64,000 nucleotides of DNA from an uncultured delta proteobacterium (lineage in GTDB: Bacteria > Desulfobacterota > Desulfobaccia > Desulfobaccales > 0-14-0-80-60-11). Positions within the stretch are counted from its first letter, which is position 1, and every line of letters begins with the position of its first letter. The stretch spans positions 800,001 to 864,000 of the forward strand of contig CAWETI010000003.1 in the NCBI GenBank assembly GCA_963812015.1, given 5' to 3'. Of the stretch, positions 4,055 through 39,946 are shown in pieces. Made by a program: the position numbers and the translations under genes. Under the pieces are notes generated by a model. It had not been told where the DNA came from. It did no database searches and saw only the letters and a list, made by a program, of their open reading frames with translations.

Positions 4055-4399
4055 ACCTGCCTGAACAGATGGGAAGAAACTCTGGCCCTTGCTCTGATCA
4101 AACTATAGCGCAAATATGCCGTGACAGAAGTGTTGCTAACTGCTATGACTAGAAACTTATCAAGCGGCTGAAAATTCAACGTATCTTGATTATATCTGCA
4201 CTTTTTAGTCTGAAGATTTCTTTTGTCTACCCTGGAGATTCTGGCTTCCTTATCTCGCAGGCATTTGAAATCATCCTCCCCACAAATGCCCGCACAAGAT
4301 ATGCGGATCATATCCGCAACTATTTGGATTTTTTGATAAGTTTATGGTTTGGCAAGCTAGTGCGCATCGACCTCCAAAATGCCCCCGATTACTTACTTG

Positions 4400-4494
4400 C
4401 GGTCCCACCTGTGCGGGGAGCCACGAATAGGAAACTGGTTTAGATTCTATCTGGATACCTCGGCACCTTTGGAACTTGACTTTGCACATAGGAG
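4400..4494 (+). mobile_element. Transposase-less mini-element copy 1 (IS110-like right end)
   Basis: CGGTCCCA...CCACGAATA...GATTCT...CTTGACTTTGCACATAGGAG; homologous copies at 37931-38016 and 39846-39946. Confidence 0.55.
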
Positions 4495-4499
4495 TGATC

Positions 4500-4605
4500 T
4501 GGCATCCAGCGAAGATTCTTGAGGTTGGTCGAGGGGGCCTTTGAGCAAGAGGCTTACATAAGTCTTATGAGGGCGTGGGGGTGAAATTCCCCCACACTAC
4601 TCGAC
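4500..4605 (+). mobile_element. Group II intron 3'-end remnant (domain VI, degenerate domain V)
   Basis: GAGGGCGTGGGGGTGAAATTCCCCCACACTACTCGAC is a DVI hairpin with bulged A and AC terminus; no RT nearby. Confidence 0.65.
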
Positions 4606-4649
4606 TTTATTATAGCCCTTTCTGATCCTCATCGATGTTCGGTTATACA

Positions 4650-12649: not shown

Positions 12650-13806
<1,157 letters not shown>

Positions 13807-25088: not shown

Positions 25089-25179
25089 GTCGAGTAGCGT
25101 GGGGGAATTTCCCCCCCAGGCCCTCCCAGAACCGAATGTGAACCTTTCGACCACCCTAAAGAAATTTCGTTGGATGCCA
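25089..25179 (-). mobile_element. Group II intron 3'-end remnant, homologous to 4500-4605
   Basis: Reverse strand CGGTTCTGGGAGGGCCTGGGGGGGAAATTCCCCCACGCTACTCGAC. Confidence 0.7.
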
Positions 25180-25181
25180 TA

Positions 25182-26027
25182 TAGCTTGCCATTATCCGCT
25201 CTTCTGCTAATCATTCCATATGATTCGTATATTGGAACCTTTGCAAATAGAGGCTGAATTGGGAATTCTCCCGAAAAATTGAAAAAATTCCGGGGAGATC
25301 GTATTGACTGAGGGGGAGTCCCTCCCGAGGTGTCCGGTTCCCGACATAGACCAAGGGCAGGGGTGCGGGACCGGGCGGTCCTGACGTCGGAAGCAGCAGA
25401 CATTAAGAAATCTGCACGGTGTTCCGTGGCTCTGCTCCTGGCCAAACCTGCCCGCCGAGAGCACGCTCACTCCTTACCCTTGCTTGACCCACCCCAAATC
25501 GTGGCTCAAAAATGCCCAGACGCATTTGTAATGGCATCCTGGAGACGTGCTTTGGGATGGCCAGGAGCGCGTCCGGCTGAAAATCGGTTAAAAATATTTA
25601 GGCATGGGTCCCATAAAAGGGGGGGTGCCACCACAGGGTGGATCATCGCAGATGAAAGAAATTCTCCACCACAACCGCACGAAATCGACCTGATCACCTT
25701 CACCCTTACCTAATAGAATTAACCAGCTATATTTTTGAAAAAATCTGCGTACCACCTTTTAAGCATCAGGGGGGGTAAAGATCGTCTCCGGGGGTTTGCC
25801 TTCTGGGGCCGAAAACTGGTGGGCCTGGGGGTGGGGCGGGGGGCTGCCTGGTGAGCGGTTGAGGGATGATAGGCATGGTGACTAGGGTGGGGCGACGGTG
25901 GCGGTGGTGGTGCCGGTGAACCCTGGGGGACCGGGGGGGGCCGAGGGGATGGGGCGGGGTAACCGAGCCGGCGCCGCGGCGGGGGTGCTGGTGCACCACA
26001 GGAGTAGGAGGTGGACGGCAACGCGGG
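25182..26027 (+). repeat. ~830-bp GC-rich module copy 1 (inverted homolog at 37108-37925)
   Basis: Collinear similarity throughout; 25511-25597 vs reverse complement of 37534-37620 has 86/87 identity. Confidence 0.9.
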
Positions 26028-35273: not shown

Positions 35274-35348
35274 GGGCGGTTAACTCAGCGGTAGAGTGCC
35301 ATCCTCACACGGTGGAAGTCACTGGTTCAAATCCAGTACCGCCTACCA
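35274..35348 (+). tRNA. tRNA-Val (CAC)
   Basis: GGGCGGTTAACTCAGCGGTAGAGT...CTCACAC...GGTTCAAATCC...CCA; 75 nt. Confidence 0.97.
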
Positions 35349-35354
35349 GCAAAT

Positions 35355-36500
35355 TCAAGGGGTTACGGACTTTAATCGTAACCCCGTTTCCTTTTTGGTG
35401 CCTAAATGGTGCCCAACCGCTCCAAAAACCGCATTTTCCAGCCGGCAGGCAGCTTGGGGGTTCTGATCTTTCATTAGGTGGGCATAGACATTAAGGGTCA
35501 CCGTGGGGCTGGAATGTCCAAGCTGGCTTTGGATATATTTGATATTCTCGCCTTGCTCAAACAAGAGGCTCGCAAAGGTGTGGCGGAGATCGTGGAATCT
35601 GATCCGGGGCAAGTCCGCCGCTTTGAGGGCTGGAAGGAAATGACGTTGAACCATGTTGCTGCAGTTCATCGGCCTCCCGGCCTCATTCGGAAAAATCAGG
35701 TCCAGGTCGTTGGCGGTACAGGCAATCCGCCATTTTTTTAGCTCCCGGATAACGGTCGGAGCCAGGTCGATCTTACGCCGTGAACCCTTGGTCTTGGGGG
35801 TAAAGAACCTGCCTTTGTTGAAAGTTCGCTGAATGTAAACCTGCTTGATCTCCCAGTCGAGGTCTCCCCACTTCAAGCCCACAAGCTCCCCCTGCCGCGC
35901 CCCGGTCATAATCGCCGTCAAGAAAAAGGTATGATACTTCTGATCCTGGACCTGCTCCAACAAGGCCGTGATCTGGCCAGGAGTGAGGATGGCGAACTTA
36001 TTCTCTTCTTCATGCCCGTTGGCCTGCTCCCTGGGTCTCTCCGCTTCCCTCAAAGGATTGTGGTCGATGTATTTGTGCCGGACCGCATAACTCAATATCT
36101 GACCAAGGCTTACCAGGATTTTGCGAAGAGTACCGATGTTCATTCCCTGGACCTGCCTGCCGGTGATGAGTTTCTCCAACGTGGCGATGGTGATCCGGTT
36201 GATCTTGAGATCGTTGAGTTCATTGAAATGATTCCTGACATGACCATCATAGACCTCCCAGGTCGTCTCCCGAAGATTGAGCCTCTTATGCTCGACCCAC
36301 TCGCGGGCCACCTCTGCAAATTTGGGAACCTCCTTGGCCGGGAGAAAAGTTCCCTTGGATACCATTTCCTCGCAGGCACGAAGCTGATCTTTAGCCTGGG
36401 CCTTCGTTGCACCACTCGGCATGAGATGCCTCTGCCTTTGGCCATACTGGTCATAGAAATCCAGAAAATACCGGTCACCGCGTTTCCTTACTGTTCCCAT
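35355..36500 (-). CDS. Tyrosine integrase abutting the tRNA-Val 3' end
   Basis: TGARQGEL, HDLRHT and LGHS...T...YAH catalytic residues intact. Confidence 0.95.
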   Translation of the reverse strand: MGTVRKRGDRYFLDFYDQYGQRQRHLMPSGATKAQAKDQLRACEEMVSKGTFLPAKEVPKFAEVAREWVEHKRLNLRETTWEVYDGHVRNHFNELNDLKINRITIATLEKLITGRQVQGMNIGTLRKILVSLGQILSYAVRHKYIDHNPLREAERPREQANGHEEENKFAILTPGQITALLEQVQDQKYHTFFLTAIMTGARQGELVGLKWGDLDWEIKQVYIQRTFNKGRFFTPKTKGSRRKIDLAPTVIRELKKWRIACTANDLDLIFPNEAGRPMNCSNMVQRHFLPALKAADLPRIRFHDLRHTFASLLFEQGENIKYIQSQLGHSSPTVTLNVYAHLMKDQNPQAACRLENAVFGAVGHHLGTKKETGLRLKSVTP

Positions 36501-37107: not shown

Positions 37108-37925
37108 CCCTGTAGCCGTCCACCACCTGCTCCTATGGTGCGCCGGCAACCTCGTCGCGGCGCCGACACGGTCACCCCAGCCCCCTCCCCTCGGCTCCCC
37201 CCGGTCCCCCCGGGTTCACCACCACCGCCACCGTCGCCCCACCCCTGGTCCACCATGCCTATCATCCCTCAATCGCTCACCAGGCAGCCCCCAGGCCCAC
37301 CCCAAGGCCCACCAGTTTTCGGCCCCAGAAGGCAATGTCGGGGACCAAAACCTTACCCCCCCTGTCATTTAAAGGGTGGTACGGAGATTTTTTCAAAAAT
37401 ATAGCTGCTTAATGGTGTTAAGTACGGGTGCAGGTGATCAGGTCGATTTCGTGAGGTTGTGTTGGAGAATTTTTTTCTATCTGCGATGATCCACCATGTG
37501 ATGGCCCCCCCCTTTTATGGGACCCATGCCAAGATATTTTTAACCGATTTTCAGCCGGACGCGCTCCTGGCCATCCCGAAGCACGTCTCCAGGATGCCAT
37601 TACAAATGCGTCTGGGCATTGGTGAGGCATGATTTGGGGTGGATCAAGGGGGGAAAGGAGGAGAGGTAAGCGGTGAGCGTGCCCCCGGCGGGCAGGTTTG
37701 GCCAGGAGCAGAGGCAAGAAACACCGTGCAGATTTCTTCCCGCCTGCTGCTTCCGGTGTCAGCACCTTCCAGTCCTGCGCCCCTGCCCTTGGTCTGAGTC
37801 AAAAACCGGAACACCTCGGGACAACCCTCCCCCCCGAAGTCAAGTGATCTCCAATCCCCTTTGCAAGGGTTCAAATATACGAACCATAACGATAAATTAG
37901 CGAAGGGGCGAATAATGGCAAGTTA
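37108..37925 (-). repeat. ~830-bp GC-rich module copy 2
   Basis: Reverse-complement homolog of 25182-26027. Confidence 0.9.
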
Positions 37926-37930
37926 TGCGG

Positions 37931-38016
37931 CGGTCCCACCTTCATGGGGAATCACGCATAGGAGACTTGTTTGGATTCTCATCGGACCCGCTCCATCTTG
38001 ACTTTGCCCATAGGAG
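37931..38016 (+). mobile_element. Transposase-less mini-element copy 2 (IS110-like right end)
   Basis: CGGTCCCACC...CACGCATAGGAG...GGATTCTC...CTTGACTTTGCCCATAGGAG. Confidence 0.55.
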
Positions 38017-38110
38017 ATAGCCGCGATTGCAAAAATATCGTCCAATATATACTGCTCCCCTTGGCGCTGAGACATGAAGCTAAGCGAGCATAATGTCTCA
38101 GGGGGTAAGG

Positions 38111-38996
38111 ATGAAACGCCGTAAGATTGATCCGGAGACCAAGGTAGTGGCGGTCCTGGAAGGGCCCAGAGGCGAGAGCTCCATTGGAGATATCTGCCAC
38201 AAATACCAGATCAGCGAGAGTCTGTACTATCGCTGGCGGGACAAGTTCTTGGCCGGCGGAAGCCAGGCCTTGAGTTCCCGGAATGGTTCGGGTCCCCAGG
38301 CTGCCGTGAAGGCCAGGATTTCTCAGTTGGAAAGGATTACCGGGAAGCAAATCGTCCAGATCAAGATTTTAAAAAAAATTTCTCAGTAAGGCCGGGAGTA
38401 GTCTCCTTGCCGGCTGGCTGAAGGACTCCGGTTATCCCGTCACCGCGCTTTGTACCACCTTGGGATGGCATCGAGCCACCTTTTATCGGCGGGCCCAGGC
38501 GGGGCAGGGGTCCGGCTCCCCAGCCCTCAAATTGCTGGGGAGCCGAGACCCCGTGGGTGATACCAAGATTTTAGCAAGCATCAAAGAGATCAAACAGGGC
38601 CATCCGTTTTGGGGCTATCGCCGGGTTCGGGCCCGGCTGAAATATCGGGAAGGTCTGCCGGTGGGGTACAAAAAAGTCTATCGGCTGATGAAAGAAAACG
38701 CACTTCTGGTGCCACAGAAAAGATACCGGGTTAACCGTCAGCCGACGTGCCGCAAGCCTCAAGCCAACTGGCCGAACCAGTTCTGGGGCATAGATATGAC
38801 CAAGTTTATCGTTCCGGGTCTGGGCTGGGTCTGCCTAGTAGTAGTCCTGGATTGGTTCAGCCGGAAGGTGGCAGACTGGCAGTTGTCCTTGAGATGCAGA
38901 ACCCAAGAGTGGCGAGAAGCCCTGGAAGGAGCCGAGTTACAGGAATTTCCCTACGGATTGTGGGAGAAGGGACTGAAGCTGAGAAGATTTGAATAA
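38111..38996 (+). pseudogene. IS3-family transposase orfA/orfB, truncated
   Basis: OrfA HTH (ICHKYQISESLYYRWRD), A8 slippery site at 38371, OrfB WGYRRV and WGIDMT; integrase core truncated. Confidence 0.85.
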
Positions 38997-39140: not shown

Positions 39141-39845
39141 TTGCGAAATTAGGGATTTCCTAATTTATGTAATTTTGGTAACTGCTAAATTATTAAGCAA
39201 TAATTCAGGAATTTTCCGTTCGAGCCGAGGAACTTTGCTCAAGGCAATCCAAAATCGAACCGGACGATGACCAATTTCGCCAAGGACGGCCCATTGGTCC
39301 CAATCAGTGAGAAAAGGAAAATGATGAAAAGGATGATTTGGGCCGCAATGGCTAAGGGTGCCGCATAATATGCCATATAATAATTATAGCAACTGAAAAG
39401 GAGGACAGCATGGAGTAGGAAAGGGTATCTCCGGAATTAGCCAAAGTAATTATAAGAACAGTGATAGACACCGTTTAATAAGTAAAAGAACAAAGAAGGC
39501 AGGGCAACCATGGACTCTTGGCTATTAATACACGCATTTTGGGGACCTGTAAGGGATCTGATAACCTTTCATTCTCTCCTGATTAAGGGAATTATTGGAG
39601 GAACGCTGTTTTTTTGGGTTCTTAATAAAGCATAGCATCCCAACCTGTTTCAGACCATAGCGCTTCCTACTCATCTCCCTGCTCCTTTGGTCCACCACTC
39701 CAACATAAATTGTAGGTCACAGTTTTCGGGGGGCAGGTCACTATAACTCGGGAAATACCAGGAATCAAAAAACTTCCTATATCCAGACCATATCTTCAAT
39801 TTTCCTCACTCTAACGATAAGTCCCATTCGTGGCAAGTTATTTAA

Positions 39846-39946
39846 CGGTCCCAACTTGGCTGGGTAACCACGAATATGAAATTGGCTTGGATTCTCAATG
39901 AAAACGGATACTGGACCTCTTTTCAACTTGACTTTGCACATAGGAG
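39846..39946 (+). mobile_element. Transposase-less mini-element copy 3 (IS110-like right end)
   Basis: CGGTCCCA...CCACGAATA...GGATTCTC...CTTGACTTTGCACATAGGAG. Confidence 0.55.

Follow-up and report, generated by a model that had tools for sequence, protein, structure and literature searches.

The window analyzed here, a stretch of 64,000 nucleotides from an uncultured delta proteobacterium, carries three short mini-elements (minis) without a transposase gene, each directly behind the heptamer TGGCAAG. By direct reading and alignment, all motifs that a sequence-only reading had reported were confirmed at their positions: CGGTCCC at 4400, 37931 and 39846, the terminus CTTGACTTTGC(A/C)CATAGGAG ending at 4494, 38016 and 39946, TGGCAAG(C/T)TA at 4350, 37916 and 39831 on the plus strand and at 25191 on the minus strand, and an internal CATAGGAGA at 37957 inside copy 2. 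The element bounds given there had to be moved, however, since this '10-mer' spans the element junction; the elements really start right after TGGCAAG, at 4357, 37923 and 39838, with lengths of 138, 94 and 109 bp. The features are as follows:

4287–4356, plus strand: target site, left part, a ~75-bp repeat ending in the TGGCA-AG core (nhmmer E 1.8e-14, with a profile of 51 sites of the genome that includes this site itself); the same sequence precedes the intact IS
4357–4494, plus strand: copy 1, long-class mini of 138 bp with a target-like leader, a complete but eroded donor-loop region and the IS right end
4393–4397, plus strand: putative right-donor guide remnant TTACT, by alignment position; not in copies 2 and 3
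4426–4433, plus strand: left-donor guide remnant with the last base mutated, by alignment and guide analysis
4476–4494, plus strand: -35 box TTGACT, subterminal inverted repeat and left-donor sequence with the AG core
4495–4606, plus strand: right flank of copy 1, of a flank family found elsewhere directly after the target core; its last part resembles the decayed 3' end of a group II intron
25177–25238, minus strand: empty member of the target family, core 25191–25185 (nhmmer E 0.01)
37679–37922, plus strand: repeat preceding copy 2, with the target core 37916–37922 as its last part; BLAST matches to C3:2127355, window 25478–25181, C2:1012287 and others
37923–38016, plus strand: copy 2, short-class mini of 94 bp with an internal deletion; 8-nt leader, 3' half of the donor loop (donor guide 37957–37964) and IS right end
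39773–39837, plus strand: copy 3 target site, left part (nhmmer E 8.7e-11)
39838–39946, plus strand: copy 3, short-class mini of 109 bp; donor guide 39873–39880 with two changes

A tRNA-Val with an adjacent phage-type integrase (35274–36500) and an IS3-family remnant just behind copy 2 (38093–38996) place copies 2 and 3 in a mobile region. The Rfam scan of the window returned two tRNAs and one weak chance match. On the minus strand, the long leader at 4357–4375 reads GGAGG-TCG-ATG facing into the target site, and the CAT and CCT positions are among the best conserved.

Chance similarity does not account for the copies, considering the excess of TGGCAAGNTA over shuffled sequence (five occurrences in the window versus 0.43 expected, with five reached in 0/100 shuffles), the BLAST matches to the right end of the intact IS (E 1e-27 to 2e-11) and the mutual identity of the copies. 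Given that they are 67–74% identical to each other and 75–81% to the intact right end, the copies are evidently old. The exact terminal 20-mer occurs six times in the genome, and eight times if up to two changes are allowed.

The sequence-only reading had traced the copies to IS110/IS1111 elements, had proposed a search for a full-length IS110 with the same terminus and had considered the idea lost if no transposase gene ever adjoined it. BLAST retrieved an intact element of 1,372 bp at C2:800056-801427, with 95 bp of non-coding DNA on the left and 218 bp on the right and the terminus about 220 bp behind the transposase gene (C2:800151-801209). A second terminus lies about 220 bp behind a broken transposase gene (C3:887121-887819), and in about 50 related loci the copies' terminus likewise follows an IS110 transposase gene. 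Both parent copies, the intact and the broken one, start at TGGCAAG|TAACTATG. The intact transposase scored 224.7 bits against NF033542 (cut-off 140), also matched PF01548 and PF02371, and contains the motifs GIDLH, YEAG, KTDRRD and QYSSA in alignment with IS621/ISCro4; it belongs to the DEDD (RuvC-like) transposases with a C-terminal serine, and the acidic and serine motifs are kept. The combination of a short left end and a long non-coding region downstream of tnp is that of the IS1111 group. The subterminal inverted repeats agree at 10/11 bp with a one-base indel, slightly short and imperfect compared with the about 11–13 bp of IS1111 elements, and the 10 nt between them at the junction correspond to 7+3 if the AG core is counted left. 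We regard the derivation of the three copies from an IS1111-type element as beyond reasonable doubt; judged by alignment, each is the 3' portion of the non-coding right end of such an IS110-family element.

The -35 hexamer that had been expected in the right end is present as TTGACT near the terminus. Joining the parent ends yields a predicted junction promoter, TTGACT-17-TATGAT, and the same promoter results from an in silico fusion of the copy 1 right end with the intact element's left end. In the window itself, no -10 box lies 17 nt downstream of the outward -35 of the three copies, hence no hybrid promoter was seen there. Right-end/left-end junctions, as in a circle or tandem IS, were absent from the DNA searched (genome, relatives and related loci). 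This collection comprised 70 contig loci, the relatives' genomes and at least 120 metagenome loci, 80 of those with full flanks. Right-end matches were obtained in 24/61 and 24/32 genomes, some of them only 20-base matches, and the parent transposase in 13/83 genomes of the order, a count affected by the frequent loss of IS copies from assemblies. Viral contigs gave 0 exact matches to the terminus. The IS110 located in the window at 12811–13806 was rejected as a helper, as it is 23% identical to the parent transposase and has no matching ends; it is a multi-copy element with at least 8 genome copies, unrelated to the minis. A second IS110 (402 aa, C3:449600-449800) is apparently inserted at a sequence resembling the opposite end of the tyrosine-recombinase element described below, GATAAGTGTCGGATCATAG.

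Guide segments were analyzed in 40 distinct autonomous right ends, with tandem and GAG-slipped rows (L041, L183, L206, L208, L212) left out beforehand. The right-target guide, a 5' segment that is the reverse complement of core and right flank, scored 6.95 of 8 versus 5.49 permuted (n=40), and the left-target guide, a later segment equal to left flank and core, 6.93 versus 5.71 (n=28). The internal copy of the terminus, which had already been linked to a donor loop, turned out to be the left-donor guide: this segment of the second hairpin equals the element's own terminus, perfectly so in 38/40 autonomous right ends, and covaries with it. For each of these three guides 0/2000 permutations were as good, a figure that is not a probability since the rows are related to each other; opposite-strand controls were much weaker (37 and 240 of 2000). 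Covariation of the right-donor guide was not significant (150 of 2000 permutations), and the label of the TTACT remnant in copy 1 is putative for this reason. In the parent family the top-strand complement comes first, and the guides match both target halves. On the evidence of these pairings, the parent right end encodes a predicted bridge RNA. Covariation, guide order and the spacing of the subterminal repeats together define the target as TGGCA-AG|NTAT and the junction as AG, and the fixed target that had been proposed is supported.

Two irregularities of the right ends were observed. An extra GAG between right end and usual flank recurs as a 3-base slip (L032, L175, L201, L206, L208, L212, L221, L375), and several of these rows also have a lengthened right end. 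Behind the broken parent (L014, C3:887030-888173) a 133-bp duplicate unit (C3:888040) starts exactly at the left-target-guide DNA and carries a different right-end haplotype from the IS before it; this suggests that DNA encoding the element's own target guide was hit by an insertion, and may show how a unit of this kind arises.

The target itself is part of a repeat. TGGCAAG is followed by NTA in 74/520 genome cases (14%), compared with 2–4% for seven control heptamers. The profile of the ~75-bp repeat gave 90 matches at E up to 1 in the genome, often in co-oriented clusters; about 65–90 copies are present, with clusters for example at C2:783203-812311, C3:722966-757289 and C3:1000555-1012273. 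In three cases (C2:302469, L030, L086) the site lies about 90–100 bp before a PF00589 gene, under a long mini in L030 and under a full IS in L086; L078 did not match the pattern applied. At least some copies of the repeat therefore form one end of a small tyrosine-recombinase element that is XerA-like (C2:302469-303530).

The minus-strand site at 25191 had been read as the empty counterpart of the filled site of copy 1. Its register matches that of copy 1, with 5 nt separating the core from TGGCATCC in both, and its right flank is homologous to that of copy 1. Its left flank, however, differs from that of copy 1 and is homologous to that of copy 2, which makes it an empty target-family member and not an orthologous empty site. 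In 4/7 loci examined, homologues of the copy 1 right flank adjoin the core at once, again at a spacing of 5 nt, and these joins support what would be a clean insertion at AG. No strict empty ortholog with both flanks in common was found for copies 1 and 3 in 83 genomes. In assembled contigs of four DNA runs, neither a joint that bypasses copy 2 or 3 nor a circle junction was present, although contigs cannot exclude either. In addition, flanks are exchanged at target cores while the mini stays in place: L050/L051 and L020/L292 each share mini and right flank but differ in the left flank. This exchange at or near the core means that the variety of flanks overstates the number of independent insertions.

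Decayed group II intron 3' ends also follow the same target cores or abut minis (window 4520–4606 and, on the minus strand, 25140–25088; C3:1009632-1009704, C2:792062-792158, L360, L372, L273), and one intact group II intron (C3:740025-741850, minus strand) adjoins a target site. The intron-like end of the copy 1 flank resembles the Rfam-confirmed intron end at C3:740025-740100. An intron origin of the copies was considered in view of the GTGCG in the copy 1 leader and of the intron-like 3' end behind it; it was rejected, as the common core corresponds to the right end of the IS, whereas the one intact intron does not match it.

Beyond what the sequence-only reading had recognized, the elements have no left end and do not form one lineage. 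Two classes exist family-wide, of about 141 bp (long; copy 1) and about 103 bp (short; copies 2 and 3). Both are devoid of the parent left end and target loop, and the short class also of the 5' half of the donor loop. Lengths of 103–104 bp were found in 21/30 short rows and of 139–142 bp in 34/41 long rows, the latter including 2 misclassified autonomous rows. The 185 distinct right-end rows, for which the class call needed a core or right end upstream, comprise 61 rows that are autonomous or have a target loop, 37 minis of the long and 28 of the short class at a target core, 7 rows behind another right end (2 misclassified, 2 from one locus), 3 of a third class, 2 two-ended minis, 5 others, 22 without a recognizable site and 20 truncated ones. 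The rarer third class (about 163 bp; L064, L197, L269) has a leader like the flank of the empty site C3:122366, and the two-ended minis (L203, L297) are true MITEs with left and right end. Because the class call presupposed an upstream core or right end, the long leader was also searched independently as a motif in all the DNA collected: 27 of the 35 matches follow a target core, 4 a right end and 1 is one base off, and the remaining 3 are unrelated and lack the donor loop.

The minis form precise core junctions in the parent's target without a transposase, and their two fixed left ends precede many unrelated right flanks. At least 15 bits on the target profile were reached upstream of 20/26 short and 25/36 long minis, compared with 0/40 autonomous internal sites. 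The leaders begin with NTAT or NTAG, like the sequence behind the core at 64 sites that match the target profile in the genome, a few of which are filled; the mini left end imitates the right target half, so that the target is regenerated on the left. Compared with the parent left end, the leader scored 8.8 of 24 versus 7.5 shuffled; neither class has a left end, and neither the long nor the short class carries both parent ends as a classical MITE does. The leader did not covary with its own right end. Candidate origins as a degenerate left end, an inverted right end or antisense to the transposase start were rejected, being barely above shuffles with scattered best matches.

Independent passive deletions of full elements, or truncation by a tyrosine-recombinase element whose end is the target, would be compatible with minis that are not monophyletic, with the group II intron 3' relics after the same cores and with an orphan parent left end that lies at a target core without transposase or right end (C3:121131-121195). 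Among 36 close autonomous right ends, however, none runs from an internal TGGCAAG into the long or short leader, so simple deletion of the elements seen does not account for the minis. Random loss cannot create one leader, missing from the autonomous copies examined, at dozens of loci, and leaders are also found behind IS right ends in exact register. We consider this explanation largely refuted and assign it a very low probability.

The sequence-only reading had further suggested that the copies keep a working donor-binding loop, which the decay pattern does not support. Copies 2 and 3 lack its 5' half, and the guide is mutated in copies 1 and 3. Decay was measured in rows not chosen by an exact terminus (41 long, including one misclassified autonomous row, L094; 22 short; 16 autonomous). 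The left-donor guide mismatches by 9% in long and 8% in short minis versus 1% in autonomous elements, the terminal donor sequence by 7% and 9% versus 1%, and the 5' donor-loop region of long minis by 23% versus 2%. The donor guide is intact in 22/41 long, 13/22 short and 15/16 autonomous rows, the 5' loop region in 1/41 long rows and the terminal LD in 28/41 long and 14/22 short rows. The terminal LD has decayed no less than the other parts, and many of the copies are therefore likely to be dead. In addition, guides that decay as fast as the terminus and a short class with half a loop argue against working guide cassettes, and a guide role for the minis appears unlikely from these alignments.

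Nevertheless, the donor-loop RNA might serve as a decoy or partial guide, or might regulate the transposase in an antisense manner. At 7–13% mismatch, the left-donor guide can still be recognized together with the stem beside it, copy 1 is predicted to be able to fold a donor-loop hairpin, and Ssr9 is an RNA from an IS110 MITE (PMC12288879). Against working RNA cassettes speak the guides, intact far less often than in autonomous elements, the missing 5' loop half of the short class and the lack of a target loop in any mini, with the donor loop halved or eroded. Joined mini ends have no -10 box (best 4 of 6, in 4/63), and an RNA consisting of the DBL only was inactive for CazIS110-1. Folding of the window copies was no better than shuffles (z -1.3, +0.9, +1.6); folding energy was dismissed as uninformative evidence, as the intact parent end (z -0.3) does no better. 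A function of this kind is in our view quite improbable.

The phylogenetic signal separates the classes poorly. In 96 common columns they are not clades (47 changes versus a shuffled mean of 49.8, with 43/200 shuffles as low), and the 5' part of these columns gave 41 changes versus 46.5 (10 of 200). The nearest neighbor of a mini is autonomous in 35/71 cases, and each common right-end haplotype is found in autonomous, long and short rows. Judged by these trees, the minis are evidently not a single lineage.

The main rival explanation builds on this mixing and considers the minis as conversion scars, i.e. full elements turned into minis by DNA of a resident mini, without transposition. A pair of crossovers, one within the target repeat or its core and the other within the donor-loop DNA, would replace left end, transposase and target loop; the leader would spread by recombination, and right end and right flank would stay from the replaced IS. 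The shared haplotypes fit this scenario, as do the short mini L270, 99% identical to the autonomous L224/L216 in the common part, the homology available on both sides (target repeat and donor-loop DNA) and the divergence of long minis, which drops from 24% in the leader and 23% in the 5' donor loop to 5–9% at the terminus. This gradient, however, is partly made by row filters that demanded a recognizable 3' part and so favor conserved 3' ends. Conversion alone gives no mixed-class mini|mini tandems in AG register, and no allele pair with full IS and mini at one site was seen. We therefore consider conversion as the sole process a serious but rather unlikely explanation.

Such tandems exist. 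Leaders lie directly behind a right end in AG register at 8–9 distinct loci: IS|long in L183 and L287, short|long in L305, long|short in L243, L384 and perhaps L367, short|short in L054, and further L202 and C3:883705 (12 tandem-junction rows were examined, of which two were false and one a duplicate). One old long mini, together with its right flank, is found behind a core in G008 but behind a right end in the source genome (79% over 324 bp), which indicates that the regenerated target was reused. An intact helper, the parent IS, is present in the same genome. Among the 30 closest mini pairs, no near-identical minis with two unrelated flanks were found, and the closest partner was often autonomous.

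Movement of the minis in trans is likely, and our favored reading, held with moderate confidence, is that they are one-ended passengers moved in trans by the transposase and refreshed by recombination. A mini locus would have the form LT|RT'...LD|RT, in which the left junction is again a target, and transposase and bridge RNA of an intact copy would move the minis. This could proceed by two routes. By hitchhiking, an IS would insert at the regenerated target beside a mini, a circle formed with the distal right end would bring the mini to a new site, and the IS would excise later. Alternatively, the LD|RT' junction would recombine directly with a new target, by half-match or by LD-RT strand transfer. 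A double-stranded circle of 100–140 bp is strained, which weakens this second route. Right ends would be swapped by recombination in the donor-loop DNA common to IS-mini composites, which could explain why a young right end carries an old leader; what remains of the donor loop would then be passenger DNA and no working guide.

A more far-reaching version, which we offer tentatively and consider possible rather than probable, regards the minis as self-spreading parasites that exploit bridge recombination and can do without a left end. The target-like half site would make insertion symmetric (LD|RT' x LT|RT -> LT|RT' and LD|RT), and each step would rebuild both the host element's recombination site and the mini's own landing pad. 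Any helper variant with a matching right-target guide would be recruited, and the right end would be renewed from the helper. If true, this would be a natural, family-wide use of a one-sided reaction so far seen as a side reaction.

If the minis move, one-sided (LD-only) bridge recombination supports stable natural parasites, beyond off-target noise, and IS110 cargo can travel without a left end; if they do not, what is left is common IS debris whose recombination history is unusual. As defined natural substrates of 100–140 bp, they lend themselves to telling apart models of hitchhiking, half-match and direct transfer. About 40 natural guide/flank pairs, with many variants of the right target, are available from the parent family, and its one apparent case of an insertion into DNA for an element's own target guide is relevant to self-targeting in bridge editors.

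Comparison with known systems places the parent among the IS1111 elements with bridge RNA/seekRNA (PMC11187229, PMC11208160), with which it shares the downstream non-coding region, the 7/3 repeat spacing, the guide order, the predicted junction promoter and the DEDD transposase. PMC11187229 describes subterminal inverted repeats of about 11–13 bp with extensions of 7 left and 3 right for this group, and the parent's guide order and repeat spacing fit that description; to the solved IS621/ISCro4 the parent is only distantly related (E about 1e-9). The window copies differ from these IS1111 elements (PMC11187229, PMC11208160) in having no transposase, left end or target loop. Separate steps of the routes proposed here have been described: IS excision and post-excision junctions were detected for IS621 (PMC13626964), hitchhiking on composites was shown for ISPpu9 modules (PMC12288879), and half-match recombination (10.64898/2026.08.31.748434) and LD-RT strand transfer onto another target (10.1101/2025.10.25.684509) were reported.

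Within the literature covered, with most subscription papers and ISfinder outside the search, no dispersed, fixed, target-regenerating one-ended family was found. A similar case is MITEPpu9/ssr9 of ISPpu9, likewise a gene-less module behind the IS, alone or in tandem, with an AG core, which is moved by the transposase as alternative circles; in contrast to the minis, which have the right end only and a target-like half-site start, it has copies of both IS ends (A', B') and an abundant sRNA (PMC12288879). Expanded IS110 loci with LD-only tandem units (n=468 loci), LD-only or partial circles and reintegrated partial fragments have been described as well (10.64898/2026.08.14.744561), so that one-sided IS110 pieces are already known. 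These LD-only units resemble the minis in their one-sided donor match, their non-coding nature and their tandem position beside an IS, but they are mostly presented as local expansion, and IS110 insertion is said there not to regenerate the target; the minis, in contrast, are two fixed units that are dispersed, mostly solo, spread across a bacterial family and regenerate the target. Finally, a repeated site of another mobile element serves as target here as it does for the IS1111 elements targeting attC, Tn21 ends and QMITE2 in PMC11187229 and PMC5896051; unlike those, the site targeted in this genome forms one end of a small tyrosine-recombinase element that is XerA-like.
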